From an uncultured Chloroflexia bacterium (GTDB lineage Bacteria; Chloroflexota; Anaerolineae; Promineifilales; UBA4811): DNA of 64,000 nt. Shown here one piece after another: positions 11,684 to 64,000 of this stretch. The DNA is taken from NCBI GenBank assembly GCA_963707345.1, contig CAVPPE010000002.1, positions 1,015,028-1,079,027 of the forward strand. The letters run 5' to 3'. Each line of letters begins with the position of its first letter. Within the stretch, counting starts at the first letter, position 1. The position numbers and the translations under genes were made by a program. The notes under the pieces are model-generated. The model saw nothing but the letters and a program-made list of their open reading frames with translations. It ran no database searches and was not told the origin of the DNA.

Positions 11684-11743
11684 CAAAACCGAACATGCGT
11701 GCTAAACTCGCCGCAGTTCGATTCGCTAGACAAAGAGGGTAAC

Positions 11744-12823
11744 ATGGCACGTTCGTCTAATTCGGGCAGCGGGGACGCCCGCACTCAAATCTTGGACCAG
11801 ACTATTTCATCCATCATCAAGCGGTTTGGAGATGGCGCCATCATGAAATTGGGTGAGGTGTCCCATATGGATGTGGAAGTCATACCTACCGGCTCGCTCT
11901 CTCTGGACATCGCGCTGGGTGTAGGCGGCATCCCCCGCGGCCGGGTGATCGAGATTTACGGCCCCGAGGCCTCGGGCAAAACCACTATCTGCCAGCACAT
12001 TGTCGCCGAGGCACAAAAGGCGGGCGGGCTGTGCGCCTTTATCGACATGGAACACGCACTGGACCCTACCTACGCTGCCCACTGCGGGGTGGACGTGGAA
12101 AACCTGTACATCGCCCAGCCGGACACCGGCGAACAGGCATTGGAAATTGCCGAAGCGCTGATTCGTTCCGGCACCATGGCCGTCGTGGTCATTGACTCCG
12201 TCGCTGCACTGGTGCCGCGGGCAGAGATTGAGGGCGAAATGGGTGATGCCCACATGGGATTGATGGCACGGTTGATGAGCCAGGCCCTGCGCAAACTCTC
12301 CGGAGCCATCATGCAGAGCAATACCGCCATGATCTTTACCAACCAGCTCCGCGAGAAAATCGGCGTGATGTTTGGCAGTCCGGAAACGACTACCGGCGGT
12401 AACGCGCTCAAGTTTTACGCCAGTGTGCGTTTGGACGTGCGGCGGATATCCAGCATCAAATCAGGAGGGGATGTCATCGGTTCGCGCACGCGCGTGCGAG
12501 TGAAGAAGAACAAAGTGGCGCCTCCATTTGGAGAAGCCGAGTTTGACATCATGTACACCTGCGGCATAAGCAAGGCGGGCGATTTGCTGGACCTTGGCGT
12601 CGAATTGGGCATTATTGACAAGCGCGGCTCGTACTATCGCTACAACGAGGAGTTGATCGGCCAGGGCCGGGAGAACGCCAAGCAGTTTCTGGAAGAAAAC
12701 CCAGAGGCGGCCGCCTCTGTGGAGCAAGGTATCCGTGCCGCAGCGCAACTACCCGGCCGCCACCGGTTGCCAGCACACGATTCCGACGACGACGACAAAG
12801 ATAGCGACAATTCAGACGACTAG
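11744..12823 (+). CDS. recA: Recombinase RecA
   Basis: ATG 11744 (MARSSNS...). Walker [10 protein letters not shown] and canonical RecA core ([41 protein letters not shown]). Acidic tail. Confidence 0.97.
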
Positions 12824-14104: not shown

Positions 14105-14204
14105 GAAAAAGCCTCCTTGGTTCTATTTGAAATGGTACACCGGGCCGGGTATCATTTTTCTACCCCAGGACACCCATCAGAAGAAAAATAAAGATGATAC
14201 TAAT

Positions 14205-14233
14205 TTGCCTTACTAACATTGCGATGCTATAAT
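14205..14233 (+). promoter_or_regulatory. Sigma-70-like promoter upstream of the SufR-like gene
   Basis: TTGCCT (14205-14210), 17-nt spacer, TATAAT (14228-14233), in an AT-rich 300-bp intergenic region. Confidence 0.45.
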
Positions 14234-20888: not shown

Positions 20889-20964
20889 TTGCTGTCAATG
20901 AAAACCCTTGGGCTGTGCGGCGCTGTGTGGTATCATTTAACCCCGTTGTCCGCGAGGTCATCCT

Positions 20965-22722: not shown

Positions 22723-22769
22723 CAGGCCGTGAAAGGCACTCACCCGCATTACGATTGAATTAGGCAAGT

Positions 22770-47800: not shown

Positions 47801-50800
47801 GGGCAGTAATGGACCACTCGGCTTGAAAGTCAAACGTGGTAGTGGGATTGTTGGGCGTTGGCTCCACAATCCGGACCAGGGGGCCATAGCCGCGCAGGCG
47901 GTCGCTCTGTAGGTCGATCTCATAATTCCAGCCGGCGGCATCATCCTGGGGGTGCATGGGGCTCTTGACCAGCAGATAGGGTGTGGCAAGCGGCTCCAGC
48001 CGGCCGGTGCCCGGTGTGGCCTCAAACTGGCCGCGCAGCACCGGCATGGAGACGATCTCGGTCAGGCTGCTAAAATCGGCCAGCACCAGACGCGCGTCAG
48101 GGGAAGTGGTAATCTGGTCGCTGGAGCGATCCAGCGTAAAGGTTCCTCCTTTGAGCGCTACCCAGTGATCATCATCGCCCACATATCCGATCAGCGGCAT
48201 CACCGGCACGCCGGTTTCGTCCTGCTCGTTGGTGGTACAGGTGGTGGCGCAGTTGCCGTTGAACCCGGCCGGGCTGTACAGGCGCAGGTTGTCCAGTTCC
48301 TGGTAGGTTGGCCCAACGGTCAGGGTCGCCGGCGGCCGGCGCAGTTCAACGCAGACGCCATTCAGCGGATAGCGCACCACCTGGTCGGTGTTCTGGCAGG
48401 CGGTCACCTGCGCTTCCATGTTGACGATCCCTGGCGCCCGGTTGCTGTTGAGCACCAACAGCCACTCGCCGCTCTGCCCTGGCGGCACCGAGAATTCGAT
48501 CTCGTAGGCGTCCGGGCCGCGGGTCAGTTCAGCGCCGTTCACCATCCGGCCGCCGTACTGGAACCCGGGTGCAAATACCTGCAGGTTGTAGTAGCGGGCC
48601 GTGCTGCTGTTCAGCCCGGCGCTGGCATAAGGGATCTTGATCTCGATGGTAGTATCTGCGTCCAGATCCAATTCCTGGCCGCGGATCAGTTCGCGCATCA
48701 GCGTGATGGGCACGGTGATAGAGATGCCGTATCCAGGCAGAAGCGGGGCTGGCAACGCGTCGGCAACCTGCAGGTAGTGAAGCTTGTCGTTGTGCGTCGC
48801 GGTGGGCTGGTTATCGGGTTGGACGCGCAGGCGCAGGTCGGCCGGCAGGGATTGCCTGCCGTTCACCACCAGATAGTTCGGCTGCCACTCGTAACTTTCG
48901 TTGCCGGGGGTCGCGCTCCCGGCATCGGAACTCATCAACACCTCACCCGCCCCGTCGGCCAGGTCAAGTGGGGTATTGGCATAGACCGCATCGGCCGCCA
49001 GCGCGCCCTGTGAGGCGATCACGCGCCAACTGGGAGCGGCGGCCGGCAGCTGATATTCATGGTACTGGTGCCGGTAGCTTCCCACGGGGTTGGCCGAGGG
49101 CACCTGGATGGACTCCACCGAATTGTCAGCTTGCAGCCCGGGAGCGGTGTAGCTGATCAGCAAGCCGAGGCCTGGGCCATTGGTCGTGGGGTTGGCGGGA
49201 TCGGCCACCACGGCGTCCAGATTGCTCCATTGGGCCGAGGTGGGAAAACAGCTACCGGTGGGATGGAGGCCAAAGGGTGGTGGATAGGGTGGCAGCGGCT
49301 CTAGCCAATCTTCAAAAAAGTGAAAAGCCTCGTGCTTGAGTCTCAACGCCAAGCCGTGATTCTCGCTGGCACCGCTGTACCAGTCTTGCACAATTGTGGT
49401 CACATCCCAGGTGGTGGCTGGGAACGTATCGGTAATACCAAGGCTGGGGGAGGGTTTGAGGATAGTTGCCAAATTGGTAGAACTATCCATGGCAGGGTAA
49501 TTCCAGCCCGGCGAGAGCGTGTCGACACCCATCAAGGGGCTCCAATCCTCGGTCATCCGGTGTACGTAGGTCGGTTGGCGCGTGGTCTTGTCCGGATAGT
49601 AGTTAAACGTGGGGTCGCTGCCGGCCGTGTTATCCGGCACGGCGACCAGGGTGGCAGTGGTGGGCGCGGAGCCGGGAGGCAGGGTCGGCAGGGGGAACTT
49701 GACGTAGCCGCGTTGGTAGCCCCGAAGTAGAAGATCATCGGTGACATAGTGGCCTACACAGGTGTTGTGAAAAACATCCGAAAATGGGTTTGGAAAGCCA
49801 AAGCCGCTCAAGAGTTCCTGGACGTTGATGGTCGCCCCATCCAGATCTTTGATTACTTGCATGGTGGGGTCCAGCACGGCCGGATACTGCCGGCCGGGAT
49901 CGACCCACCAATCCCAGGGGGTCTGTACCTGCAGCTCCACCCGGCTGCCCTGTCGCTGGACGCGGTAGCGGCCGGTTACCTGCGCGCCGCCAAACGCTTG
50001 CTCGTAGGCCACTGGCGGAGCAAAGGTCAGCAGGGAACTCCCATCGGGATTGCGCAGTTCAACTGGCCCTTCGGTCACAAAGCCATCGCTTTGAAGCTGG
50101 CCATCGGCATACAGTTGCACGTCGGCCGGGACAGTCAGGGCTGCCCGCAGCTCCAGCCACTGGGCGCCGGGCACTGGGTCGGGTGGGCCAGCCAGGATCA
50201 ATTCCTGCTTGAGTGCTCCGGGGCCACTGCGGAACTGCTCTACCAGCGCAGGGTCGCTCCAGGCATGAGTGTAGCGCAGAGTGGTTTTGGTATCGCCATG
50301 CCCGGCCGGTTCAACCTGACCCGGCGGCAACGGTACGGCCAATTGGTACAGTGAATGTTCCCCATCACTGGCTCCAAGTTCGGTTGGTTGCCACAGCAGG
50401 AGCAGCCCTTCGCTTTCGAGTTGCACGGCCGTGCTGTCTTGTGCCAGCGTGCTCTGCAGGCTATTACGGCTCACCTGCCAGCCGCCCGGAACCGGCGCAA
50501 AAGCGGCCTCGATGGGCTGCCATTGACCGGCCGCGTCCTGATAGTTGAGCGGGGTCACGCCCACCATGGCGACGTGCTTTCCATCGCCGAGGTCAAAATG
50601 GCGCGAAAAGGCATCGCGCCGCTCGATCAGTTCCCGCCCCGATAGGGGCTGGATGGATGGCTCGGCCGGGACGGGCAACTCTACCCTCGCAGTCACGGGT
50701 AGGTTTTCCGGCGCAGCGGATGCGGCCGGGGATGCGTGTGAGGGGATGGGAGGCAAAACGGGGAGGAAACCGATCAGTATCGCCAGCCACAGCATCAGCA

Positions 50801-50855
50801 GCGACCGGGGATTCAAGCGAAAAACCTTCAATGAGCCGACTTTTGATCCAGACAT
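44844..50855 (-). CDS. Giant secreted protein (2003 aa) with two C-terminal fibronectin type III domains
   Basis: ATG 50855 with GGAGGA upstream. Signal/anchor LLMLWLAILIGFLPVL...SHASPAASA. FN3 signatures (VVVRWQPNSEQDMSGYVV; ANLSWAVSPQATGYLIYY...GLRPGATYEVWIRPYD). The central part is mostly unassignable. Confidence 0.85.
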   Translation of the reverse strand: MSGSKVGSLKVFRLNPRSLLMLWLAILIGFLPVLPPIPSHASPAASAAPENLPVTARVELPVPAEPSIQPLSGRELIERRDAFSRHFDLGDGKHVAMVGVTPLNYQDAAGQWQPIEAAFAPVPGGWQVSRNSLQSTLAQDSTAVQLESEGLLLLWQPTELGASDGEHSLYQLAVPLPPGQVEPAGHGDTKTTLRYTHAWSDPALVEQFRSGPGALKQELILAGPPDPVPGAQWLELRAALTVPADVQLYADGQLQSDGFVTEGPVELRNPDGSSLLTFAPPVAYEQAFGGAQVTGRYRVQRQGSRVELQVQTPWDWWVDPGRQYPAVLDPTMQVIKDLDGATINVQELLSGFGFPNPFSDVFHNTCVGHYVTDDLLLRGYQRGYVKFPLPTLPPGSAPTTATLVAVPDNTAGSDPTFNYYPDKTTRQPTYVHRMTEDWSPLMGVDTLSPGWNYPAMDSSTNLATILKPSPSLGITDTFPATTWDVTTIVQDWYSGASENHGLALRLKHEAFHFFEDWLEPLPPYPPPFGLHPTGSCFPTSAQWSNLDAVVADPANPTTNGPGLGLLISYTAPGLQADNSVESIQVPSANPVGSYRHQYHEYQLPAAAPSWRVIASQGALAADAVYANTPLDLADGAGEVLMSSDAGSATPGNESYEWQPNYLVVNGRQSLPADLRLRVQPDNQPTATHNDKLHYLQVADALPAPLLPGYGISITVPITLMRELIRGQELDLDADTTIEIKIPYASAGLNSSTARYYNLQVFAPGFQYGGRMVNGAELTRGPDAYEIEFSVPPGQSGEWLLVLNSNRAPGIVNMEAQVTACQNTDQVVRYPLNGVCVELRRPPATLTVGPTYQELDNLRLYSPAGFNGNCATTCTTNEQDETGVPVMPLIGYVGDDDHWVALKGGTFTLDRSSDQITTSPDARLVLADFSSLTEIVSMPVLRGQFEATPGTGRLEPLATPYLLVKSPMHPQDDAAGWNYEIDLQSDRLRGYGPLVRIVEPTPNNPTTTFDFQAEWSITAQGGPSLEGQVALDSVSDGTFNVGTLLVSPPDSGYGIEHNPQDASPFNPASIPPFLQLRMTGATIAQPDNLGGAKLVVQALLFPPGQTIKDEDKIQLVFQCGVHCFDLRGPDDAMTESGPLVDRQYRMPDLIVQDSANTVMYNTARGVEIFSSDHPFATQGADDVSFNYEAFGGSVRTFYGACPGPRDPLDPDKQGPDGPDTTVIVGTAGMVLPNAGSGGGDIAEGPQISISFTLCEGSLREMSFSFDTGPQTAIPMGNSGIFLNYIGGTISLTPQQPNQDAYTTVVLEMRFRGMQPSAAASTIFSRGIVTIDSRGLFDVQVQTGVQVFSGIGAGVDGHFWVAWSPLDLGFEVEGCIPYSGFDPGNFPNKLCEGNELLWGMLRVHLWQGQGWQHKYNWLPDDDSLHVAARFEARITIAAGLIIDWGPAQVPPDDVTLYGIKLAFGEFCTNGPCTSYEWGVMGAYIFMGYDVGAYYGFDSGISFFLGSEDYLLIDENGKAAASINLQNRGLTRVQASSQTTVTIGADVPSAMFGLAWIDGTPALTLHEPPPGNRTIDMNSVYPDVTVAITPTVVTTSPLVTGEQTLIVIDDPVPGEWMVDLGDTGSSTEFRFFYFANSATPSLTLGELPTMAVDQTSIPITWTSSISQAGSAWLSLYYEMMTGTNPITSSQAVAGPIVERIPLTSTGVYSWNIAGLTNATYRVFARIDNNAAVTVNECGENYVYNPDPSTATCGPMLNSGLFLPAERIDAPGTIRIFDFIAPAAPQGTKARPEDISSVVVRWQPNSEQDMSGYVVTCQQGLLERQVRIPSLIEATSSLSETARVNGLNAEPATCWVQAYDTSYNLSGVSASAVATPTGEIPLPPAAVQSVEITQVSPGNANLSWAVSPQATGYLIYYQAILYPLPDARTMNLATQGSTTGGYQANEGPSPINVGNVTSTSLTGLRPGATYEVWIRPYDADGRTGLRSPVVSFTVPSQTMLFLPLVLR

Positions 50856-50998
50856 TGTCCTTCCTCCAGAATGCGTCCGAGTTGGCGCTCTCGGACCGAT
50901 TTGCCCACACAAACCGGGCTACCAGATTGTTCCGTGATTTGTTGGCGAATAAAGACCGGGCTATAATCTGGTTGGCGTTTCCCCAACATCTCGTCACT

Positions 50999-51135: not shown

Positions 51136-54100
51136 ATGCCTCAACTGGATGTCAGAATCCTTGGTCCCTTTCAAGTCGCCAGAGGGAAAACCACTGTAGC
51201 CCGGTTCGAAACTGATCCGACGCGGGCGTTGCTCATTTACCTGGTGGCGCACCCCGGAACGCCCTTCCACCGGGAAGCACTGGCTGACTTGCTCTGGCCC
51301 CATCGGCCGCGGGCCGAAGCCCTGCACGCCTTGCGCCAGACGTTGAACCGCTTGCGCAAGGCCATCGGTGATCGGGAAGCAGAGCCACCATTTCTGCACA
51401 TCAGCCGCCGGACCATCGAATTCAACCCGGATAGCGACTACTGGCTGGATAGCGAATCGTTCGTCAGCCTGGTTTCTGCCACGCGCCAGCACCGGCACCG
51501 TCGCCTGGAAGCCTGCCCCAGTTGCCGGGAGCAATTAGAGCAGGCATCCGCGCTCTATCGTGGCGATCTGGCAGCTGGCTTTTTCCTCGGCAGTCTACCT
51601 TTCGAAGAATGGCTTTTGATGGAACGCGAGTATCTCCACCGGAGGGCGATGGAAACCTTCTATCAGTTGGCAGTCATGCACAACCGGCGGGGAGAATATG
51701 AGCAAGCCCAGCGTTATGCCCGGCGGCAGACCAGGCTGGAGCCATGGGGAGAAGAAGCCCACCGTCAGTTGATGCTGGCTCTGGCACACAGCGGCCAACG
51801 AAGTGCAGCGCTGGTCCAATACCAGAGCTGCTGCCAAACCCTGATGGACGAGTTGGGTGTGGAACCAGAAACGGCGACCAGAAAGCTTTACGAGCAAATT
51901 CGTGATGGCGATTTGGAGCAGAGCACGACACCACCGCACAACCTGCCGGCGCATCTCACCAGCTTCATCGGCCGGGAAACTGAATTGGACCAGATCGCCG
52001 AATTCCTAAACAACCCTGACTGCCGCCTGCTGACCCTTCTGGGATCGGGGGGGATTGGCAAAACCCGGCTAGCCCTGGCTTCTGCGCAGCGGTCCCTGCC
52101 CTACTTTTCCGATGGGGTTTGGTTTGTCCCCCAATTCAACGACACCCAGAAACCGGCCGATGAGCAGGTCCCCGATCTGCTGGCAACAGTGATCGCCGAG
52201 GCGATGAACTTGACCCTCTCCGAAAAAGACGGCCCCACGGCACAATTGCTTCAAACGCTGCGAACCAAGGAGGCGTTGTTGATCTTGGATGGCTTTGAGC
52301 GCTGGGTCACGGCCGCAGACCTGATTCTGGAGATGCTGCGAGCAGCACCTGGTTTGGTGGTGATGGTCACTTCGCGAGCGCAACTTGACGCGCAAGCCGA
52401 GCAGATTTACCGCGTGGCCGGTCTGCCGGTGCCCCACGATGTTAACGACCCGGCCGCGGCCAACTGTGACAGCGTGCAACTGTTCGTGGATCGAGCAGAA
52501 CGCGCGGCTGGGGTTTTCACCCCAGACCTGACCGCGATTGGTCAACTGTGCCAACTGGTTGAGGGCTTGCCGCTGGCAATCGAATTGGCTTCCGCCTGGG
52601 TAGAAGCCTTGCCCCTGGCCGATATTACCGCCAAATTGGAGCAAGGTTTGGTGCTCTTGTCGACCACACGCCGCGACATCCCGGTTCGCCATCGCTGTTT
52701 GCACGCCGTCTTTGAAAGCTCCTGGCAACTGCTCTCCGAGAGCGAGCGACGGGTGCTAGCCCAACTCACCGTCTTTCGCGGCGATTTTGGCCGCGACGCG
52801 GCCCTGGCTGTGACCGATGCCAGCCCGGCCGAATTGACCAGCCTGGCAAACAAATCGTTGGCCCGACGCATCGCATCCGATCGCTACACACTGCACACAC
52901 TTTTGCGCCAATTCGCTATGGAAAGGATGACGGAGAAGCCCGCCCTGGCCGAAGCGTACCAGCGCCACAGCGACTATTACCTGGCATTCATCTGCAAGAG
53001 GACGGCCGCTTTCCAAGGTAGCGAACCCCAGCAGGCAATAGCCGAAATCCAGGCCGAGATCGCCAACATCCGCCAAGCGTGGCAATGGACCGTAGGCCAA
53101 CTCGACACGGACCAAGACCCTCAACCTGCTCTGACGGCCCTGGCCCAATGCACGCAGGGCTTGATTCAGTTTTACACGCATCGAGGGCCGAAACAGGAAG
53201 GAGAACAGATCTTCCGAATGGCCGCCGGCCGGGTGCAAACCGTTTTACAAAGACAAGGGAGCGCATCCGTCACCGCAGAACAACTGACCGCAACCTTACA
53301 GGCGCTATCCACGCTACTCACCGCCCAGGGACACTTTCTGCTGGCACTTGGCGACCACAAGCGTGCCCTGACCGTACTGGAAGAAGCCCACACCCTTTCC
53401 AGGAGAGTCGCAGCCGTCCGGCCAGGTACTGACCTCGCAGAGCGGGCAATGCTGCTGGTCAACTTGGGCACGTCGTACAATCGATTGGGTGATTATCCGC
53501 TGGCGACCGAGCATCTTGAAACAGGGTTGAACCTGGCCCGTCAGGCGGATGCCCCACACATAGAGATCACGGCCCTTATTACTCTGGCACAGGCGGCATC
53601 GGAACAGGGAACCTTCGACCAGGCCAGACAGCATCTGGAAAAGGTATTGGAACTGGCTCGCCAGCTAGGGGATCGGATTAGTGAAGGCGAGGCCTTGACC
53701 ATGCTGGGTTCCGTGGCCTGGAGATGGTGTGACTTGGAGCGGGCTGATGAGTGTTCACAGCTAGGTTTGGCCATTTTCCGCGAGCTTGGCAACCAGCAAC
53801 GGGTTTCCAGGCTGCTCAACGTTTTGGGGATTCTTGCAATTCTGCGCGAAAACTATGATCAGGCCCAGGAATACTACCAGGAGGGCATATCACTCGCCAA
53901 AGAAATCGGCGACCGTCAAGCAACGGCCGATATGCTCAACAACCTGGGTTACATTTTCCACCATTGCATCGAGCAGTATGAAGCAGCCAAAAGATGTTAC
54001 CACGAGTCAATGCTCATCGGGCGAGAGACGGGCCACCGGCACGGGGTAACCAGCACATTGAGCAATCTGGGGCACCTGCATGTACTGACGGGAGAGCACA

Positions 54101-54414
54101 ACGCCGCCTGGAGCTACTTGCAGGAGGCATTGAACGAGTTTGTCGCCATCGGCGTGGTGCCATTGACCTTGGACACATTGATTGGCGTGGCCCAGTTGTG
54201 GGTTGAAACTGGAAGGGCTATCCCGGCCGCAGAGCTGCTTGGGTTGGCCCTCAACCATCCAGCCGTAGAGGCCTCAAGCATTCAGGCGGCCGAGCCGATC
54301 CTTGCCAAATTACGTGAAGCAGTGCCACCTGAGCAATATGAGCAGGCAACAGAACACGGCAAGGCGCTCAAGTTGGATGACGTAGTTGCCAGGCTACTGT
54401 CGGAGAAGGATTGA
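51136..54414 (+). CDS. SARP-like regulator: OmpR-type winged helix + BTAD + NB-ARC/STAND ATPase + TPR array (1092 aa)
   Basis: N-terminal LDVRILGPFQV...TRALLIYLV. BTAD block (LYRGDL...EWLLMEREYLHRR...GEEAHRQLMLALAHSGQRSAALVQY). Walker A GSGGIGKTRLA. Multiple TPR units (LGDYPLATEHLE, QGTFDQARQHLE...). Confidence 0.85.
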   Translation: MPQLDVRILGPFQVARGKTTVARFETDPTRALLIYLVAHPGTPFHREALADLLWPHRPRAEALHALRQTLNRLRKAIGDREAEPPFLHISRRTIEFNPDSDYWLDSESFVSLVSATRQHRHRRLEACPSCREQLEQASALYRGDLAAGFFLGSLPFEEWLLMEREYLHRRAMETFYQLAVMHNRRGEYEQAQRYARRQTRLEPWGEEAHRQLMLALAHSGQRSAALVQYQSCCQTLMDELGVEPETATRKLYEQIRDGDLEQSTTPPHNLPAHLTSFIGRETELDQIAEFLNNPDCRLLTLLGSGGIGKTRLALASAQRSLPYFSDGVWFVPQFNDTQKPADEQVPDLLATVIAEAMNLTLSEKDGPTAQLLQTLRTKEALLILDGFERWVTAADLILEMLRAAPGLVVMVTSRAQLDAQAEQIYRVAGLPVPHDVNDPAAANCDSVQLFVDRAERAAGVFTPDLTAIGQLCQLVEGLPLAIELASAWVEALPLADITAKLEQGLVLLSTTRRDIPVRHRCLHAVFESSWQLLSESERRVLAQLTVFRGDFGRDAALAVTDASPAELTSLANKSLARRIASDRYTLHTLLRQFAMERMTEKPALAEAYQRHSDYYLAFICKRTAAFQGSEPQQAIAEIQAEIANIRQAWQWTVGQLDTDQDPQPALTALAQCTQGLIQFYTHRGPKQEGEQIFRMAAGRVQTVLQRQGSASVTAEQLTATLQALSTLLTAQGHFLLALGDHKRALTVLEEAHTLSRRVAAVRPGTDLAERAMLLVNLGTSYNRLGDYPLATEHLETGLNLARQADAPHIEITALITLAQAASEQGTFDQARQHLEKVLELARQLGDRISEGEALTMLGSVAWRWCDLERADECSQLGLAIFRELGNQQRVSRLLNVLGILAILRENYDQAQEYYQEGISLAKEIGDRQATADMLNNLGYIFHHCIEQYEAAKRCYHESMLIGRETGHRHGVTSTLSNLGHLHVLTGEHNAAWSYLQEALNEFVAIGVVPLTLDTLIGVAQLWVETGRAIPAAELLGLALNHPAVEASSIQAAEPILAKLREAVPPEQYEQATEHGKALKLDDVVARLLSEKD

Positions 54415-55287: not shown

Positions 55288-55648
55288 GGCCGATACTTCC
55301 CCTTTTCCATCAATCGCTCTCGATTGACGTGGCATCTCGCACACCGAGTTTTACATCACCAAGGTCCGTGCCCAGACACACGAAATGCACCAACACTATA
55401 CACCCAAGTCGACGGTCGAGCAAATGGCCCAATCGCTGCAATAAGCAGTCCGGCCGCACAACGTGGTCGTGGTTGCAATTTCCAACGAAGGACCCACTTT
55501 CCTGCTTTTTGGCCGCTGACAAGCCATCCGCGAACCATCCTCGGCCGGAGCCGCCCACCCCTACTCAACTGGCAACCAATCCCCCACGGTGGGGAGAATC
55601 GGGATGGGTAACAGACTATTCACCCATGGTTATCACTACCAGCCATCA

Positions 55649-55745
55649 AACTTTGAGAGCAGGTAATAGGTGGTAGTACAAGCGACAAATGAAGTGATGG
55701 GATACTCGCGGTCCCCCACCCCGGCCGGAGCGGCTCTACGTTTCC
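55649..55745. repeat. About 95-bp segment (gene 3' end plus downstream) repeated at 58869-58990
   Basis: actttgagagc...ggtagtaca...cccccaccccggcc is shared by both copies, roughly 75% identity by eye. Confidence 0.55.
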
Positions 55746-56815
55746 CTGGCGTCCCGGCCGGGTGGGTCGGCCCGCACCCAGCGCTGACCGTCATACCAGT
55801 GCCAGCCAGCGTTGGTCAGAGCCCAATAGCGCCCATCCTCATCCTGCACCACCAGCTTTTTCACCTCGGCCTCGTAGGTTGCATGGTCCACCGAGCCCGC
55901 TTGATAGCCGGCTTGAAGGGCCTGAAAGCGCCGCTCAACCTCGGCGTAGCGGTCCGGCGGGGCGGGAGCGGACGGCGCGGCGATCGGCGTCGGCTGCCAA
56001 GCGGCGGCCGGAGTTGGTTTGGCGCGACGCTTGCGGCGGCGGACCATCAGGCCAGCAACCACCAGCAGGCTCAGGAACCCGATCAGGGCGATCCCACCGC
56101 AGACCCACAGGATCCAGGTCCAATCGAGCAGCCCGGTCAACGGCTCTTGGACTGCCTCCTCTACCTGGATTCCGTCATCCGCGGGAGCTGGAACGCAGCC
56201 GGTCAGGTTCAGGTTCCAGACAAAACCGTCGTCGCAGACATACTCGGTCGCCTCCAGGTGGGCGTTGGCCGGCACGGTGGTGGTCACACACCCTTTGGGG
56301 TTGGCGGCCGGGTCGGCCGGCTGACAGCTCTCGTTGGGATAGCAGGCGCAGGCCGGGTTGGTCTCGCAGGTGTCGCCAGCGGCCGGGAGGCACGTGCCCT
56401 CAATGATCAACGGGCCGCGGGTCAGCGGCTCAAAGCGCAGCGCCATCTCAAAGGCAGCGGCATCGATCTCCCCGTCAAGAAAGGCATTCCCCAGCGCGGG
56501 TGTGCCCACCACTTGCATGATCTGCCCGTCATCAAAGCGCTGTTGCAAGCTTACCTCGGCATCGGGTGCCAGCCGGTCCCCAAACAGGGCCAGGGCCCGG
56601 GCGACCCGCTCCAATTCGGCCTCAAAGGGGCCCATCCCAGCCACCGGCTGCTGGTAGACCACCAGCGCGCGGTCGGCCTCCAGGGTAACCTGGGCGTCGT
56701 TCAACCCCAGGTCGCGCAATGCCTGCTCCAGGCTGGCATCCTGGGCCGCGACAGACGCGGGCAGCCAGCAGATGAGAGCTAGTAGGGTCGAGAGTATGAA
56801 GGTTCTATGTCTCAC
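55736..56815 (-). CDS. Single-pass membrane protein with Cys-rich ectodomain and SHOCT-like/Trp-rich cytoplasmic tail
   Basis: GTG 56815 with AGGAG 7 nt upstream. Signal peptide LLALICWLPASVAAQD. TM helix WILWVCGGIALIGFLSLLVVAGLMV followed by RRRKRR. Tail YEAEVKKLVVQDEDGRYWALTNAGWHWYDGQRW. Confidence 0.6.
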   Translation of the reverse strand: MRHRTFILSTLLALICWLPASVAAQDASLEQALRDLGLNDAQVTLEADRALVVYQQPVAGMGPFEAELERVARALALFGDRLAPDAEVSLQQRFDDGQIMQVVGTPALGNAFLDGEIDAAAFEMALRFEPLTRGPLIIEGTCLPAAGDTCETNPACACYPNESCQPADPAANPKGCVTTTVPANAHLEATEYVCDDGFVWNLNLTGCVPAPADDGIQVEEAVQEPLTGLLDWTWILWVCGGIALIGFLSLLVVAGLMVRRRKRRAKPTPAAAWQPTPIAAPSAPAPPDRYAEVERRFQALQAGYQAGSVDHATYEAEVKKLVVQDEDGRYWALTNAGWHWYDGQRWVRADPPGRDARET

Positions 56816-56843
56816 GGTTGGCTCCTGGTTCCTGGAAAACCGG

Positions 56844-58685
56844 TCACTGGCCTGGCTTGACGCTCTTGACGGGGTCCTGGAAGGCCCACAGCAGCCCCTC
56901 CTTGCCCCAGTAGGTGCCGCCGGGTTTGACCAAATAGTCCCGCAGCGAGTTGTCATCCAGCGAATGGCAGGTGTGGATATAGGCATAGTCCAGGTTGGGC
57001 CTGGTCGATCGCTGGGTAGCCGCCTGGTTAGCCTCTTGTTGGTTCATGCCCTGCGCCCGGTAGCGGCGTAGGAGATTACCGTGAATTGCGCTCCCGAGGC
57101 TGGCGGCATTCGAGGACTCGATCGTCGGCGTGCGAGCATGCCCAAAGTAGGCCAGCGCGCGGGTGGCGGGGTTGCCCAACGCCTCAGGGATTTCGTCGCC
57201 AGTTTTGATCTGGACAACTTGGATCTCGTAGCCTTGAGCCCGGTAAAACTCTTGGATCCGCTTCATCTTACCCGATATCCACCAACGTTCGTAGTTTGAG
57301 ACCCCGGGGGACACAGCAAACACGGCGACCTTGGGGCTGCAGCCAAAGGTATCCCGGCTGGGGCTCCAGATATCGCAGATTTTGCCGTCATAGCAAGGGC
57401 ACAGATCGGGGTTGGCGTAGCAGGTCATTCCGATCTCACAGGAGGTAGGTTTGGGCGTACCGCCCTCCGGGGTCGCGGCGGAGGGGACACAACTGCCTGT
57501 GTCGGCATTCATCTCCCACCCGGCCTTGCACTTGCACCCGTCGCCATCCGGTTCGGCGCCCACGGTGCACACACAGCCGGAGCCCGGCTCCCAGGTCATC
57601 AGGGGAGCATCGCAGCGACAGGCGCAGCTGTTGGGGGCGGACTCGGCCGGGTCGGACACCGCGCGGGGATCCAGCCCGCTGCAAACCTCATCGCAGGCAA
57701 CACAGTTGCCGTTGCGGTCGGGCTGCCAGCCGGTTTCGCACACACAGCCACAGCTATCGGCATTGCTGGCACCATCCCAAACCCAGTGGGGGCCAGTATT
57801 GCACTCAGCTTCGCACGGGTGCACCGCCGCATCCAGTTGTAGCTGGTGATCGCCGGGGCCAATCTGCCGGATGAAAGCCTCGTCCATCACCAGCGTAAAC
57901 ACGCGCCCGCTTTCGTCCAGCGTTCCGGCCGGCTGACTGTCCACTGTATGGGCCTGGATTGGGCCGGGCATCTCGATCCGATAGGTCATCACTGGCAAGC
58001 CGGCGGCCAACAGGATACGTTCCAGATACCAGGCCTCCACGCTCATCTGGGCCGACATCTCGTCACCCAGTTCCTCAAACAGCCCCATAAAGCCCATCAG
58101 GCCTCCCCCTCCTGGCACCGGCTCTTCGGCCGGGGGAACGGGCTCCGGCTTTGGCCCCAGGCCGTCCGAGCGCATCGTATCCAGGGTGGTCAGGGTCTCC
58201 TCGTCGGCCATTTCGGGCAGGTCCATTTCCAACACATAGTGAATCCACCCGTTCTCGTCGACGTACGAACTCACTGGGGATTCTTCGATGTCGGTTCCCG
58301 GTCCATAGCGCTGGGAGCCAGATGCCACCATCTCGGTTGCTGTCTCGGAGATGATCTTGTAATCAGGCCCCAACGCCCCCGAGAAATCCGGCTTTTCCTC
58401 CATGTCCTGTATCGACTCGGGGAATTGCATACCAGGTGGTTCGAGGTTGGCGGCCGCATAGTCGGCGTTTAGCTCCTGATTGGCCTGCCGTGCCGCCTGC
58501 ACGTATTCGTCGGTCAACCGGTAGGCAATGATCATTTCGAGCTTGCCAGAATCGGGTCCTTCCGGGATCACCTTGATGCCGTAATCTATCTCGATGCAAG
58601 CCAACTGAACGAGTAGCAAAAGGCAGATGACAAGGAGAATGCCCCCAGGTGCGCGCCAGATCGGGTTATGCGTGTGATTGCTCAT
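56844..58685 (-). CDS. Membrane-anchored protein with EGF-like Cys-rich repeats and a C-terminal domain bearing a His...Cys dyad
   Basis: N-terminal anchor GGILLVICLLLLVQLAC. Repeats CGCVCETGWQPDRNGNC / CVCTVGAEPDGDGCKCKAGWEMNADTGSC. C-terminal ALAYFGHA ... YAYIHTCHS. Confidence 0.65.
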   Translation of the reverse strand: MSNHTHNPIWRAPGGILLVICLLLLVQLACIEIDYGIKVIPEGPDSGKLEMIIAYRLTDEYVQAARQANQELNADYAAANLEPPGMQFPESIQDMEEKPDFSGALGPDYKIISETATEMVASGSQRYGPGTDIEESPVSSYVDENGWIHYVLEMDLPEMADEETLTTLDTMRSDGLGPKPEPVPPAEEPVPGGGGLMGFMGLFEELGDEMSAQMSVEAWYLERILLAAGLPVMTYRIEMPGPIQAHTVDSQPAGTLDESGRVFTLVMDEAFIRQIGPGDHQLQLDAAVHPCEAECNTGPHWVWDGASNADSCGCVCETGWQPDRNGNCVACDEVCSGLDPRAVSDPAESAPNSCACRCDAPLMTWEPGSGCVCTVGAEPDGDGCKCKAGWEMNADTGSCVPSAATPEGGTPKPTSCEIGMTCYANPDLCPCYDGKICDIWSPSRDTFGCSPKVAVFAVSPGVSNYERWWISGKMKRIQEFYRAQGYEIQVVQIKTGDEIPEALGNPATRALAYFGHARTPTIESSNAASLGSAIHGNLLRRYRAQGMNQQEANQAATQRSTRPNLDYAYIHTCHSLDDNSLRDYLVKPGGTYWGKEGLLWAFQDPVKSVKPGQ

Positions 58686-58868
58686 ACCAGCTCCTGAACG
58701 TATGCCAAAAGACGAGGTTGTTCACTCCGCTGAAGCGCGAGTATATCCGGGGTGTGTCATCTGTCAAGACAGTCACACTCAGTTTCCTGCTGACCCTCCA
58801 TCCCCCACGGCGGGGGAAATAAGGCATACGCTAGGCAGGCACCACTGATTCTTGGTTTCCTTGAGCCA

Positions 58869-59120
58869 GACTTTGAGAGCGGATGATAACAGGTAGTACA
58901 GGTCACAATTCAAGTATTGGGGGTACCCTCGCGGGCCCCCACCCCGGCCCCCCCTGTGCCGCCCCGGCCGGGGCGGCACGTCGTTTCCGCGCTGCGCGGC
59001 GCAGCCCGGCCGGGCGGGCATTGTGTCCACCGTAGCAAAAGGAGCTGCATGAATCCACGCGCCCACACAAACCGCCAGCGCACCGCTGGCAACCCCAATC
59101 GTGAGGCCGTTTACCATCGT
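58869..59120 (-). pseudogene. Decayed 3' fragment of a paralog of the 55736..56815 gene
   Basis: The minus strand reads ...LRWTQCPPGRAAPRSAET, compared with ...QRWVRADPPGRDARET* in the intact gene, followed by the shared downstream repeat. No intact ORF. Confidence 0.35.
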
Positions 59121-59379
59121 GGTGGGCAGCCTTTTTTGTTTCCCCCTAGTTCACACAAAGGAGTATACTGTGTCAACGTTTCAAACCCCCGAAGCCATCG
59201 TGCTCGATTTGATCTGGTGTTGTTATCTCGTTTCTTGACACAGGTGCCGCAAAATTCCCGATCTATCGAATGATGAGGGTCAAGTCAGCGGGAGGCGGTT
59301 CGCAGCCAGCCCCCCGTGCGTCAGGACGATGGGCGGCGAGTTTTGTCGGATCCAGGCAAATCAAAGACAGATCATGCTC

Positions 59380-59522
59380 GTAACTGTTCACAATTACCCC
59401 GTGAACCCGGAGAAATCGAGCCTTGTTGCCGTTCACAGCGCCTACGTCAGCCGTTTTGGCGCCCCTGAGATGGCCAAAATGGGCTGCGCCGCCGGTTTTT
59501 TACCCCAACTCTGAACAGTTAC
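59380..59522. mobile_element. 143-bp MITE with IS66-type termini (copy 1)
   Basis: gtaactgttca (59380-59390) and tgaacagttac (59512-59522) are identical to the IS66 terminal repeats. Perfect 8-bp target duplication tcatgctc (59372-59379, 59523-59530). The first 22 nt match the IS66 right end (gtaactgttcacaRttaccccg). Confidence 0.75.
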
Positions 59523-59826
59523 TCATGCTCTCCGATTTTGGCGTGGAGCACGAGTTCAATTCAATCCAGATGGCATATTACTGCACTAAACATCCCGGTA
59601 GATAGTCATCACCGCAGCACTTGGTCGTACATTGAACACGACCATCGCATCCTACCCGGCCGCGCGCGGTTCTGTTACCCATCCGCCACTGGCCTATCTC
59701 CCCACATCAAGGTTGTATCGGTATCGGATAATGGATTCATTAACCCTTCCGATACCAGCACCCAACAAGCCCTTTACCCGATGTGAGCCTGCCCTCCCTG
59801 CTCAAAGCCCCCTCGAAGGTGAATAG

Positions 59827-59985
59827 ATACCCCTGCGCCTGGCGGCCGAGGGCTCACCCTACAGCCAGGAATGCCTCAGCCTCCTGGCGCGCAACGGCCG
59901 GTTGGAAGCCATCAAGCGCAGCCGGGTCTGGCTCACGACCCACAAAGCGCTGGAAACGTACCTGCAATCTGTCGCTCAGCGCTGA
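59827..59985 (+). pseudogene. Remnant of a small excisionase/MerR-like HTH protein (no start codon; preceded by an in-frame TAG)
   Basis: Reads IPLRLAAEGSPYSQECLSLLARNGRLEAIKRSRVWLTTHKALETYLQSVAQR*. TAG at 59824-59826 lies in the same frame as ORF 59632... Confidence 0.3.
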
Positions 59986-60089
59986 GGAGCGGTGAGACGG
60001 CCGGAAAGTGCTGCTGTTCCCCAACCGGATCTCCCTACCGGTAGGGATGGGAACTTGCGATTATTCCACGACCTGTTGGATATAGGTTG

Positions 60090-63000
60090 CTAATGCCCGA
60101 GTTCAAGTGGCACCAGGCTGCGTTTCATCATCTGCAACGCACGCTCTGGGTCAATGTAACCGTACAGTCCGCCAACAATCGAAACCATGTAAGCCGCATC
60201 CATCAAAACCAGGCCGCGCGGCCGCAGAATCCAGCTTTCTTCTTCGTTGTAATGGGTTCCGGCCGCAATCAGGCGCAGGTCACGCCCAAAATCGCCCTCT
60301 TCCATGCATTTGTGGTAAATGGTGCCACCGATGAGCAAGGTGGTACAGGGTTGATTGAGAAAGTTGACCCCATATTGCAGAAAGTAGGTGTCTGTTTCCT
60401 TGACATAGCCCAGGTTGCGGCCGGTAGTGGCCGCCATGATTTCTTTGGCCAGGAACGAGCGTGCCGCGTTTTCCGGCTCGGATGTTGGCAGCGCGTGGGG
60501 GTTGGCCGAGAGCCAGTCTAGGTACCGACCTAGAGCGATGTCTAACCGGCCATCTAGCCGCCGCACAAAGCTGTCAAATTGATCGTCTGCCGGCCGAATG
60601 CCAGGATACTCTTCCAGTAGAAAGCGCTCCATATCTCGTTTCATCAGCCCGTTTTGAAACCGCTCCAACTCTTTGATGTTCTCCGCGTCGTAGGCCAGAC
60701 CATACTTTCCCTCGACGCGCCGGTAAGCCAATGGGGTATTGGGGGTTTTGAGGATAGTTCGCTTGACCTTACGCACGGGATCGTCGCCCTGATAGTCGTA
60801 GAGGGGATTATCGCCCACATTGGAGTAAAAGTCGGTTGTTGCCCCGCCAATGTCAAGTGCCATGATATTCCCGAAGTCCTGGCTCGTTGCCGTACCCTTT
60901 GGCCAGCAGATTGATGCCTCGGAACGCGGCGCGCGGGGTCGGGATGAATGGAGCGGTCATATACTCTTCAACAACGTCAAAGCCCTTGGCGCGAATGATG
61001 ATCGTCTGAAAGAGGTCCCGAATGGCCTCATTAACGACCTCGATGTGGAACGTGTTGATCTCCGGCATCACGTTGGGGGTAAGGCGAATATCGACTCCCT
61101 CGGCCTGGAAAATCCGTTCAACCTCGTCGCGGATGTCTTGGTTGCCCGCGTAGATGACGGGCACGCCATAGCGAGTGTAGGTCGCTGCCCTGGCGTGCTT
61201 GGCCAGCATACGGGCGTTATGGAGTTGGGTCTGGGTGTCCCCGCCCCGATCCACCCCGCCGGCTTGCAGGATGATCTCGGGCTGATCCTGCTCGTAGATT
61301 GCCTGTGCCTGCTCCTCGGTGAGCATGCCGGCGTAGGTGTTAACCAGTTTGGCTCCGGCCGTCAGGGCCGCCAGTTCGGCCGCAAAACCGCTCTCCTCCT
61401 TGACCATAGAAACCGTCACCATCTTGAGCCCGCCTTTGGCGCTGGAACAGGGCAACTTGAGGTCGAATTGGGCCATCGCTTCTGCCAACGGTTCCCAGTC
61501 GCCGCGTCGACGGCATGCATCCAGCACACCCAATCCGTCAGCCAGCGACTCCCTCAGATCATCGACAATGGTGGGTACGTAGCGCAAGTCGAATTCTTGG
61601 GTCGCGGTGTCAAAGGTGCCAATCTTGGAAAAGGTGCTGCCAAAATCCACCACCAGCACACGCTTATTGTCCAAATCGGCCGTGCTGTGGATACCCACCT
61701 GCCGGCGGGCTTCAGCCAGCACATCTTCGTCCACTGCCTCTGCCGTTTCAGTGATGTACAGGTCCTCGTCTGCGTGGCTGATGCTCTTGTCAAAGAACCA
61801 GGGACTCCTTGCACGAACCCGGTCCACCCGGTCAATCTCGTCCTCAACCTTTTCGCCCAGAAATTCGTCGATCAGGCATCCCCCATCCATGATTTTGGTG
61901 CGGCACTTCCCCACCGGTTCATAGCGCTTGTCCAGCACCGTGATCTGAGGAGCCTGAAACAGCCCAACCTGAAGCGCCAGGTCCAGCGTATCGGCGCTAA
62001 TCACGCCGCATTGACCAGTTGGATAGTTGGCCTCGTCGACAAAACTGAGCAACATGGTTTCATAGTTACGTTCCCATTCGCGAGGATGGTCCCGCTTGCG
62101 TGCCGCCTCGGGCGAGACAGCCCACTCGAAAAAGTTGTCCAGGTTGACCGGTCCTTCGTAGCCGCCCAAAAGCGCCAGATGAAAGATATTGTACATTGCC
62201 CCGCGCTGAAGCCTGCGTTTGCGGCCGAGCAGCCGCGGGTCCGCCCAAATATTGGGGCGCTCATCTCGATAGTAATCTTCAAAGACCTGCTTGACGATGT
62301 CACAGCTTTCGATGACATCCTCGGCCTTGGCTTCGTGATGTGCCTCGGAAAAGCTGACCACATGGACAATGTCTGGCTCCATATACATCTGCCAATAGGT
62401 GGAGACAGCCAGGTGCCCTTTGGCTTTGTCGAGGTTGGGCGGAAAGTCGGAGAGACCGCCACGAGTTTCCTTGATGATGCGGTAATCAAAGTGGCGGGTC
62501 AACGGCTCGATCAACTCGTAAGCCGCCTGGAACTTGGCCAGGTCGTTCATCCCCGAAGTTCCCGGTGGCAAGTCGAACATCATCTGCATCACGTATTGGC
62601 GGATTCCAGTTTTGAGTGCCACGATGCCGCATACAACGTGGTCCGCCACCAGTAGATCGTCCGTGCTGTTGCGCAACTGCCATTGGTGCGGATCGTTGAT
62701 CTCGACCGGCTTGTCGATAGAGGCCCACCAGCGCATCACCTCAAAATGCTCGTCAAAGCTGTCGCGGATTGAGATGGGGCCGCGGCCGTCCAGCTCGTTG
62801 TAGTAAAAGATCGGCACGGCCGGGAACGGCATGCGAAATGCTCCTTCATAGAGTTTGGCCAGTTCAACCAATTCGTCGGTCCCTGAGTAGATGCGGGTCA
62901 TTGGGTAGTTGCCGCATCGAGTTGCATCTTTCAGCCGCTGCAAATCCTCAATAGAACGGATAGGGGCGCCGCCCTGCCCCCTCAGGTACTTGTCCGGATC

Positions 63001-63771
63001 CTCTTCGCCGCGCACAAACTTGGCCAGGTATTCCTGCGCTGGCTGATCCGGCGCCAACGAGACGATCTCCAGGCATTCGGCTTCCGCCAATTTGGTGACG
63101 GCTACTATGGTTGGCTCGATAGAGTCGGCCGCAATGCCGATGTGGGCCCGAATGATCGGCCGCCCCTCCAACTCGCGCACCTGGACAATGCGATCCACTA
63201 GTGTATCCGCCCACTCGATTGCTTTCGTTTCAGTCACAACAGTGGTGGCTTGAGCAAACGCCTCAAGCTCCTCCATCGTGATATAGTCATCCACCACAAG
63301 ATCAAAGAAGCCCTGAAAAGCCTCAATATCGCTATAGTTTTCGGCAATCTCATCCAGATCAAAATGCCGATCCTCAGGCGAGGTGAACTTGTCCTCCTGG
63401 ACCGCCAAGCCGGTCATCGCACGGACCAGGTTGGCGGCCGGCCGCAGTCCACCAAAAGCGTAACGAATGCCGCTCTCACGCGGCAGAAGATGATACAGAG
63501 CCGCATTTTGAATAAACTCGCTGATGAGCTTGTCGACATGCAAATCACCCAGGCGCATCGAGATGGCAACAATCTCCGGCCGGGACTCGCGAATCTTGTT
63601 GATCACATCCTCAATGGGCACGGCCGGGCCCAGCTTGACGGCCATGAAACCCTCTTGTCGGTCCTCCATCCACTCGGCAAATGACTCGACGCCCAGAGAA
63701 TGGACGCAGTCGCCAATTGAGCCAGCCATTACGCGCCGTTTGATGGTTGATTTTTCCGCTTTGGTACCCAT
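60090..63771 (-). CDS. Fused B12-dependent mutase-like protein: GlmS-like B12-binding domain + GlmE-like barrel + GlmL/MutL-like ASKHA module; one frame break near 60865-60890
   Basis: ATG 63771 with AGGAGG upstream. N-terminal VMAGSIGDCVHSLG...EIVAISMRLG. Middle GGLSDFPPNLDKAKG...VVSFSEAHHEAKAEDV resembles the GlmE block GGFPQDESKAFG...VKTPHEAIGIPT. C-terminal VLVVDFGSTFSK ... (frame change) ... ALDIGGATTDF is GlmL-like. Confidence 0.65.
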
Positions 63772-63904
63772 GGAATCTCCTCCTAAATGGTGATGATTAC
63801 CTCGATTTGATTGACCCATTTCGTATCCAACGCAAATTGAACAAGCTCTGCCACGCTTTTCAGTCCATAGCTCTGCGGGACACGGGCCTCGCACTGGTCC
63901 CGGC

Positions 63905-64000
63905 CTAAATAATCCTTGCTGATCCTCTACCAGCCCAGGCAATGATCGTATCCATCATGGGAGTTTGCACCCCCGCCATCTCACCGACCGCCCGGCCGAC
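63905..64000 (-). CDS. 3' end of an upstream gene (partial); the C-terminus resembles the ketopantoate-reductase/opine-dehydrogenase family
   Basis: The minus strand from nt 64000 reads VGRAVGEMAGVQTPMMDTIIAWAGRGSARII*, with TAG at 63907-63905. Too short for a firm call. Confidence 0.3.
   Translation of the reverse strand, partial: VGRAVGEMAGVQTPMMDTIIAWAGRGSARII

Follow-up and report, generated by a model that had tools for sequence, protein, structure and literature searches.

A single-chain fusion of B12-binding, GlmE-type barrel and GlmL-type modules paired with an opine dehydrogenase in Chloroflexota and other, mostly uncultured, anaerobes

A 64,000-nucleotide stretch of the genome of an uncultured Chloroflexia bacterium (GenBank assembly GCA_963707345.1, contig CAVPPE010000002.1, positions 1,015,028 to 1,079,027; hereafter the window) carries near its end a reverse-strand gene for a single polypeptide that joins a B12-binding domain, a barrel of the fold seen in the glutamate mutase subunit GlmE, and an ATPase module of the GlmL type. 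Judged from sequence comparison, gene context and a structure model, the protein would be an adenosylcobalamin (AdoCbl)-dependent radical isomerase with a fused chaperone. It would act on an acidic amino acid or an opine, jointly with the product of the adjacent upstream gene, an opine dehydrogenase; we put the probability of this interpretation at roughly 60 %. The family to which the protein belongs is well defined and highly conserved (65–85 % identity across phyla), is found mostly in uncultured anaerobes, and combines the architecture of a radical B12 enzyme with substrate-binding residues that fit no known reaction. To our knowledge, the known AdoCbl isomerase reactions number about a dozen, and new ones are rare.

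An intact fusion gene interrupted by an assembly error

With one spurious base removed, the gene reads as a single frame (Table 1) whose product is 100 % identical to a database protein, P0304 (1226 aa), found in the 90 % cluster of the database entry for the upstream part of the gene (ORF A; entry P0001). P0304 is encoded on a contig (ENA ERZ25039603 contig_17554, locus L090) that matches window positions 59163–64000 at 99.73 % identity and carries the intact 1226-codon gene. In addition, more than 100 homologues, each a single open reading frame for about 1223 aa at 65–85 % identity, were retrieved from a protein collection, mostly named “glutamate mutase L” or “TIGR01319 family”, and the frame is uninterrupted in nearly all complete loci among 80 homologous loci, the exceptions being L014 and L089. 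The three-module fusion is real, far beyond chance. A reading of the window made earlier from its letters alone (the sequence-only reading) had likewise proposed that one frame carries all three modules, and the mis-assembly of separate genes that it named as one way to be wrong is contradicted by the intact frame on L090 and in the homologues.

In the window as assembled, ORF A and the downstream part (ORF B) share 11 nt in different frames. The MutL family of Pfam (PF13941) is split between them, with profile positions 1–243 at the end of ORF A and 247–450 in ORF B, and therefore a single GlmL module has been severed midway. At the break, the window reads GGACTTCGGG where L090 reads GGACTCGGG, so the forward strand has one surplus A at 60874/60875, inside the interval 60865–60890 in which an indel error had been suspected earlier. 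Homologues run through this region without interruption (...GYGDEPGLGNIMALDIGGATTD...). The window and L090 differ at 13 positions over the shared 4.8 kb; five of these fall on GACTC, altering five of the six sense-strand sites in that segment, and four of the five are G-to-A changes of the first base, the fifth being the frame break itself. Two further differences are homopolymer indels. This concentration of differences on GACTC and on homopolymers points to an error in the consensus of the assembly, not biology, as the origin of the frame break. GACTC and GAGTC together occur in the whole window at about half their expected frequency, and the 64 kb hold at least five broken genes, the mutase gene included. 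Together, the broken genes and the motif-specific errors suggest a systematic long-read consensus error at methylated GANTC sites, with both the sequencing platform and the methylation presumed. In annotation of this assembly, the two parts of the gene should be joined.

It would be extremely improbable for the long gene or its division to be an artefact or a peculiarity of this one genome, be it a mis-assembly of separate genes, a pseudogene, or a gene read by a programmed +1 frameshift at CUU-C. The assembly as given does contain two overlapping frames, the second of which opens with an ATG of its own, and the slip site CUU C followed by CGG might in principle permit a +1 shift. Against this stand the 1226-codon gene intact in a contig of near identity, the concentration of differences between the two assemblies at GACTC sites with homopolymer indels among the remainder, the breakage of at least four other genes in the window, and the continuous frame of nearly all complete loci. 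A programmed frameshift was rejected in particular, as almost every homologue has an unbroken frame and several GACTC positions, this site among them, are miscalled in the assembly. One of the two exceptional loci, the Anaerolineales bin12 chromosome (L089, CP070811.1, a complete-chromosome MAG), holds a homologue at 9899–11794 that is also interrupted, leaving a 632-codon frame; this may be another long-read indel.

The B12-binding domain and its variant ligand motif

The N-terminal domain was proposed earlier to be of the B12-binding type, and this assignment is borne out by a match to PF02310 and by profile matches to corrinoid and mutase domains of known structure. The family and superfamily profiles matched 4jgi at E 5.7e-8 and the B12 mutase domain 2yxb at E 1.9e-7, with further matches to MttC, MetH, the HCM small subunit, ornithine 4,5-aminomutase and GlmS; B12 domains were the only solved structures found by these profiles, the barrel and the GlmL module finding no match among PDB sequences in these searches. 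A profile–profile alignment (hhalign) with GlmS of E. coli O157:H7, the source of all reference Glm proteins used here, gave E 6e-4 over 121 columns, and the AlphaFold model of residues 1–720 (built on 62 sequences; pLDDT 84, pTM 0.77) shows a beta-alpha pattern across residues 12–120. The Rossmann domain starts at about residue 11 without a cap, as in the small subunits of mutases, and a Pfam scan of the intact protein gave no match to the helical cap family B12-binding_2 (PF02607).

The cobalt-ligand motif departs from the canonical D-x-H-x-x-G in a manner other than that first described. The sequence GDCVHSLG (63691–63714, reverse strand) had been taken for a shifted motif, D-x-x-H-x-x-G. 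In alignments to canonical domains and distant paralogues, Cys22 falls in the column of the canonical Asp, where the distant paralogues of about 620 aa have DAHTLG or DPHTxG. The pattern C-V-H-x-L-G is constant in the 80 loci and the residue preceding the Cys varies (D, A, K, P or E). With Cys22 in the Asp column and a variable residue before it, the motif is therefore CxHxxG, and the shifted reading is withdrawn. The Ser (S71) and the GG pair (G107–G108) of the canonical pattern are present. In glutamate mutase the Asp of DxHxxG is important for catalysis; an invariant Cys in its place provides a natural variant of the Asp-His-Co relay, a much-studied catalytic feature. A cobalamin riboswitch, for which the sequence-only reading had suggested looking further upstream, was found neither in the window nor in six homologous loci.

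A GlmE-type barrel in the middle region

The middle region is, by its modelled fold, a GlmE-type barrel. The AlphaFold model has a (beta-alpha)8 pattern at about residues 203–535, and the first two ranks of a Foldseek search against the PDB were E chains of glutamate mutase (6h9e_B, E 2e-12; 1cb7_B, E 4.5e-12; TM-score on the target 0.63). Lysine 5,6-aminomutase, along with ornithine 4,5-aminomutase, followed at E about 4e-9, and after them methylmalonyl-CoA and 2-hydroxyisobutyryl-CoA mutases at E about 1e-5; no methyltransferase barrel was among the top 50 matches. The earlier proposal of a GlmE-like middle region thus stands as to fold. As to GlmE-like blocks of sequence it does not: neither Pfam nor PDB sequence profiles recognize the region, the intact protein had no match to the GlmE family PF06368 (Met_asp_mut_E) at E ≤ 1, and the substrate-binding residues appear not to be kept. 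Two distant relatives, P0131 and P0124, match PF06368 weakly (27.5 and 18 bits).

Residue correspondences were drawn from an hhalign comparison of the superfamily profile with GlmE, which gave 275 collinear columns at E 5.7e-4 and a probability of 29 %, and in which GlmE residues up to 409 align within the extension that follows the barrel (Table 1). The residues conserved across the superfamily are R208/H210, GGxP (267–270), Y295, D328/R330, E357/N359, R367, R437 and H470...E476. In the alignment, NGLP of GlmE is paired with the invariant GGxP, IRHGT with IYSGT, and TKSPHEA with VVSFSEA. Lys326 and Glu330 of GlmE are probably ribose contacts. The backbone of GlmE N123 forms part of the adenosine cavity, and glutamate is bound by an arginine claw of R66, R100 and R149 together with E171 (PMC10947579). 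Arg149 aligns with the invariant Tyr295 and Glu171 with Pro317, and their loss is to be regarded as provisional because the alignment is weak. By eye only, and outside the hhalign alignment, PRAG on the first strand of GlmE (R66) resembles IRAH (R208) in the present family. Four arginines, R208, R330, R367 and R437, are conserved across the whole superfamily.

A complete and divergent GlmL-type module

The C-terminal module matches PF13941 from end to end (profile positions 1–450 of 450, residues 705–1219 of the intact protein; E 1.2e-77, 262 bits against a cut-off of 27) and is 29 % identical to GlmL of E. coli O157 (BLASTP, E 5e-35). Both phosphate motifs of the ASKHA fold lie where they were first reported, DFGSTFSK at 61624–61647 and DIGGATTD at 60831–60854 on the reverse strand, and the two-lobed module described from the letters alone is complete. 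D709, F710, G711, S712, T713 and K716 are invariant, and the columns of DIGG.TTD are at least 90 % conserved. The NCBIfam models for GlmL, for the GlmL family and for the GlmL-related protein Or-4 all match, with scores below the cut-offs of TIGR01319 (190.2 against 204.05) and of the GlmL equivalog NF040745 (262.7 against 475). On these profile scores the module is a divergent relative of GlmL, not an orthologue or equivalog. The name “glutamate mutase L” carried by many homologues is misleading for the fused family, and the fusion offers a one-protein system in which to test what GlmL-type proteins do.

The relation to Or-4 and the second-ranked fold matches bring up an aminomutase dependent on both pyridoxal 5′-phosphate (PLP) and AdoCbl, of the lysine-5,6 or ornithine-4,5 type, with a dehydrogenase taking the next step as it does when lysine or ornithine is fermented. 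The two aminomutases are the next-best structural matches, the Or-4-type relative of GlmL scores 135–165 bits, and the order of mutase and then dehydrogenase resembles the lysine and ornithine pathways. Lysine 5,6-aminomutase, like ornithine 4,5-aminomutase, anchors PLP on a Lys 11 residues after the ligand His. In the present protein that position is Met35, and the B12 domain has no Lys conserved across the superfamily. Furthermore, the TM-scores to the aminomutases are 0.34–0.46 against the 0.63 obtained with GlmE, and the partner enzyme is an opine dehydrogenase, acting on a secondary amine, rather than a diamino-acid dehydrogenase. We therefore regard an aminomutase of this kind as very unlikely.

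An opine dehydrogenase partner and a transport operon

Gene context was counted in the 80 homologous loci, 74 of which had enough sequence upstream of the mutase gene to identify its neighbour. An opine dehydrogenase gene lies directly upstream on the same strand in 73 of the 74. In the window only its 3′ end is included (Table 1), the remainder lying beyond the last position; the full gene occupies 8805–9989 of L090. There, the mutase gene is the last of a tightly packed run of same-strand genes encoding, in order, an RpiR regulator, an Opp-type binding protein, OppB, OppC, an MttB homologue, OppD, OppF, a C45 amidohydrolase/acyltransferase, the opine dehydrogenase and the mutase. Across the loci, OppB and OppC neighbours are found in 53–54 of 80, C45 in 32, RpiR in about 30, a C26 gamma-glutamyl-hydrolase-like gene in 15 and GntR in 12. 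In five loci of Thermotogae and Bipolaricaulota type (L040, L053, L054, L064 and L087), a gene for a PduO-type ATP:cob(I)alamin adenosyltransferase follows directly on the same strand, at about 13620–14210, its start being only a few bases from the stop codon of the mutase gene. A full-length MttB-family (trimethylamine methyltransferase-like) gene sits between oppC and oppD at 4146–5603 of L090, and others were seen at 7284–8741 of L001 and 1750–3234 of L007.

The partner is a full-length homologue of the scallop octopine dehydrogenase 3c7a (PDB sequence search, E 1.3e-68). The His of the HP motif and the Arg and Asp of RYLxED, which we take to be catalytic residues of opine dehydrogenases, are conserved in it. 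It also has Arg in PAR[GS]G and Gly in G-x3-HPG, at the two positions that, in reciprocal mutagenesis published in 2024, switch opine dehydrogenases to acidic amino acids such as Asp and Glu (PMC10787698). In five to six Anaerolineae loci a second opine dehydrogenase paralogue, 45 % identical to mODH-48 of the same study, lies a few kb upstream. With this pairing, the candidate substrates narrow to acidic amino acids and N-carboxyalkyl derivatives of these, and the reaction becomes directly testable with purified proteins.

Relatives without the GlmL module also adjoin opine dehydrogenase-family genes. An exhaustive search with the middle region yielded 307 clusters at 50 % identity, many of them of 550–630 aa with a B12 domain and barrel and no GlmL module; those checked were unnamed or called “cobalamin-binding protein”. 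The stand-alone relatives in Asgard and polysaccharide settings are of about 580–620 aa, without GlmL. One in an Asgard bin (L091, 8001–10849) stands directly before an opine dehydrogenase-family gene and near an asparagine synthase gene. The other setting (L092 and L093, 8001–9863 and flanks) is a Rikenellaceae-type cluster for polysaccharide biosynthesis, in which sugar-nucleotide enzymes, PGA_cap and two ATP-grasp ligases are encoded next to an Octopine_DH gene. The partnership extends to a triple fusion of opine dehydrogenase, B12 domain with barrel, and GlmL module in P0084, P0307 and P0308 (1657–1658 aa), recovered from several independent Logan contigs.

Glutamate mutase and methyltransferase readings weighed

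The context bears directly on one alternative, an ordinary glutamate mutase converting L-glutamate to 3-methylaspartate with its S, E and L components fused. GlmE is the best structural match, the accessory module is of the GlmL type, the partner dehydrogenase has determinants for acidic amino acids, and the neighbours include glutamate-related genes such as the C26 gamma-glutamyl hydrolase-like gene and, near distant relatives, RimK/glutathione-synthetase ATP-grasp and PGA_cap genes. However, PF06368 is unmatched, and the glutamate-binding Arg149 and Glu171, to the extent that the weak alignment can be trusted, fall on Tyr295 and Pro317. Searches with E. coli O157 methylaspartase and FumD (tblastn) found neither methylaspartate ammonia-lyase nor mesaconase in about 90 loci or in the window, no separate GlmE or GlmS gene was found in the flanks of these loci, and the score against the GlmL equivalog is little more than half its cut-off. 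On balance, an ordinary glutamate mutase appears unlikely.

A second alternative draws on the B12 domain. The protein could be a corrinoid methyltransferase component, with the MttB homologue methylating the B12 domain, the barrel handing on the methyl group, and a reductive activase similar to RamA or RACo in the form of the GlmL-like ATPase. The best matches of the domain are MttC, MtbC, MtgC, MtaC and an O-demethylase corrinoid protein, and an MTTB gene is found in the operon of the window organism, with no separate corrinoid protein gene in the loci whose gene tables were inspected; known corrinoid activases are also ASKHA ATPases. Set against this, 80 % of the loci lack an MTTB gene, the barrel matches only barrels of AdoCbl isomerases among the top 50, and there is no B12-binding_2 cap domain. 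In addition, the B12-related gene found directly downstream encodes an adenosyltransferase and not a partner in methyl transfer, and GlmL-family proteins accompany AdoCbl mutases, as the NCBIfam names indicate. We judge a methyl-transfer role quite unlikely.

A number of the observations nevertheless weigh against the AdoCbl isomerase interpretation. The match to PF02310 (E 2e-6, 28.1 bits) falls below the gathering cut-off of 32.1, the nearest sequence relatives of the domain are corrinoid proteins of methyltransferases rather than mutase subunits, and the Asp of the canonical Asp-His pair is replaced, although His24 and Gly27 are kept. An MttB gene, which fits a methyl-corrinoid role, is a neighbour in 16 of the 80 loci and is also inside the operon of the window organism, and the adenosyltransferase gene is adjacent in only five of the 80. 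The mapping of residues onto GlmE depends on a profile alignment of 29 % probability, the chaperone role of GlmL is itself an annotation-level assignment (PMC4682846), and no follow-up or characterization of any member was found in the literature since what is very probably the same superfamily was predicted in 2009. In favor of AdoCbl as the cofactor stand the fold class, the adenosyltransferase neighbor and the absence of a cap domain, and taken together these make its use probable.

A proposed role for the mutase–dehydrogenase pair

If the protein is an AdoCbl isomerase, the N-terminal Rossmann domain would bind the cofactor in the base-off/His-on state through His24, with the invariant Cys22 in place of the usual Asp partner, and would cap the GlmE-like TIM barrel, where the 5′-deoxyadenosyl radical would abstract hydrogen from a carboxylate-rich substrate. 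Damaged cofactor may be exchanged or reloaded by the C-terminal ASKHA ATPase, acting as a chaperone or reactivase within the same chain. The mutase and the upstream opine dehydrogenase would form an obligate pair, and their substrate, probably an acidic amino acid or an opine, would be imported by the Opp-type system and in some lineages released by the C45 or C26 amidohydrolases. The most likely role is a rearrangement step by which an imported acidic amino acid, or its N-(carboxyalkyl) opine derivative, is either degraded or made.

A more specific and tentative possibility, unlikely as it stands and drawn by analogy, is that the enzyme is an “opine mutase” performing a 1,2-shift on a secondary amine by which N-(2-carboxyethyl)- and N-(1-carboxyethyl)-amino acids would be interconverted, the substituted amino group moving between C1 and C2 of the carboxyethyl arm. 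The analogy is that opines and 3-methylaspartate have isosteric CH3-CH(COO-)- groups, the substituted nitrogen replacing the migrating glycyl carbon. Such an enzyme would make the isomer that the opine dehydrogenase cleaves to pyruvate and an acidic amino acid, or would consume the isomer that the dehydrogenase makes. If true, this would explain the constant pairing of mutase and dehydrogenase and their fusion, the loss of the amine-binding Glu171 of GlmE, the additional invariant arginines, as suited to a tricarboxylate, and why the pair is found in polysaccharide gene clusters as well as in Opp-type uptake operons.

Distribution and relation to known systems

A scan of one genome per species found the family in 177 species-level genomes of more than 10 phyla, with the gene almost invariably in a single open reading frame. 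The carriers listed are all metagenome bins, mostly of Anaerolineae, other Chloroflexota and Bacillota, with further members in Atribacterota, Thermotogae, Bipolaricaulota, SAR324, Ignavibacteriales, Spirochaetales and Actinomycetota, and one Promethearchaeota (Asgard) bin.

Three known systems are close enough for comparison. Glutamate mutase of Clostridium cochlearium, C. tetanomorphum and E. coli O157:H7 has the same three module types (GlmS, GlmE and GlmL), and several barrel motifs correspond; unlike it, the present family is one polypeptide ordered S-E-L (against S-L-E for the E. coli O157 genes), has Cys for the Asp of DxHxxG, lies outside PF06368, appears not to keep Arg149 and Glu171, and is paired with opine dehydrogenase rather than with nearby genes of the methylaspartase pathway. 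IcmF is an isobutyryl-CoA mutase fused to its G-protein chaperone, with which the present family probably shares a logic of self-contained cofactor loading and repair. It likewise carries an AdoCbl mutase, a B12 domain and a cofactor chaperone in one chain, and IcmF structures are among the fold matches; however, its chaperone is a MeaB-type GTPase rather than an actin-like ASKHA ATPase, its barrel is of the acyl-CoA mutase type rather than the GlmE type, and the substrate of the present family is probably not a CoA ester. Ornithine 4,5- and lysine 5,6-aminomutase with Or-4 are also AdoCbl enzymes with a related barrel, a GlmL-family accessory protein and a dehydrogenase as the next step in the pathway, and differ from the present family, which lacks the PLP lysine, matches their fold more weakly and has another type of dehydrogenase.

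A novel B12-dependent family of 11 proteins was predicted by Zhang, Rodionov, Gelfand and Gladyshev in 2009 (BMC Genomics 10:78, PMC2667541). The passage describing it gives a distant B12 domain at the N terminus, a barrel predicted to be of the TIM type and constant adjacency to a pfam02317 opine dehydrogenase gene, with D-Ala-D-Ala-ligase-like and asparagine synthase neighbors, in Clostridia, Lactobacillales, Chloroflexi and Thermotogae. As the distant B12 domain, the TIM barrel and the pfam02317 adjacency are all found here, the 2009 family is, matched by its description, very probably the same superfamily. That passage makes no mention of fusion to GlmL, of a GlmE-type fold, of Cys in place of Asp, of the adenosyltransferase neighbor, of the Opp operon or of the acidic-substrate signature of the partner. 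Literature searches on GlmL fusions, on CxHxxG and on opines with B12 found nothing beyond the 2009 prediction; as far as that passage and the literature found show, the superfamily was predicted in outline in 2009 and is uncharacterized since.

Table 1 Features of the window (positions in nucleotides of the window; aa, residues of the corrected protein)
Feature	Position	Strand	Basis or remark
Whole gene, single-chain B12 mutase-GlmL fusion	60090..63771	-	1226 codons and stop after removal of the spurious base
ORF A	60853-63771	-	972 codons, from MGTKAEK
ORF B	60090-60863	-	257 codons, own ATG, starts MALDIGGATTD
Frame break	60873..60878	+	GAAGTC in the window, GAGTC (GANTC site) in the near-identical contig
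B12-binding Rossmann domain at the N terminus, aa 11-135, without a preceding helical cap	63367..63741	-	PF02310 at aa 13-74
CVHSLG, CxHxxG variant of the DxHxxG loop (Cys22, His24, Gly27)	63691..63708	-	Invariant in 62 family members and 80 loci
Linker and helical segment, aa 136-202	63166..63366	-	Secondary structure of model m19a5c6336f74; partly absent in many stand-alone relatives
GlmE-like (beta-alpha)8 barrel, aa 203-535	62167..63165	-	Foldseek against PDB, hhalign, conservation
C-terminal extension of barrel, aa 536-660, helices and beta-hairpin	61792..62166	-	Invariant Cys588, Cys623, Cys632
Acidic linker, aa 661-703	61663..61791	-	pLDDT 41-70
GlmL/MutL-type ASKHA module, aa 704-1226	60090..61662	-	PF13941 and BLASTP
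Opine dehydrogenase, 3′ end	63783..64000	-	Separated by 11 nt from the mutase start; single-nucleotide deletion near 63929
Eis-like GNAT acetyltransferase, split	5187-6702	-	Acetyltransf_9 in one ORF, Acetyltransf_17 and SCP2_2 in the next
TMD-NBD ABC exporter	20941-22719	+	Membrane and ATPase halves in different frames
Second TMD-NBD ABC exporter	22764-24610	+	Membrane and ATPase halves in different frames

Other observations in the window

Downstream of the mutase gene lies a segment of about 1.4 kb (58686–60089) without a long open reading frame. A permissive scan of the ORF-free region 58600–60150 found no Rfam family, only a chance snoRNA match, and neither riboswitches nor tRNAs were found in the window or in the six homologous loci scanned. 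The segment contains a perfect 24-nt palindrome (58956–58979), an 83-nt stretch (58867–58949) that is 76 % identical to 55647–55726, and a 124-nt stretch (59842–59965) that is 77 % identical to 1748–1871 of L051, one of the homologous loci. Just downstream of the mutase locus, on the reverse strand at 55736–58685, are two Cys-rich open reading frames without a Pfam match. Finally, the window holds a 2022-codon open reading frame at 44844–50912 on the reverse strand and one of 1092 codons at 51136–54414 on the forward strand.

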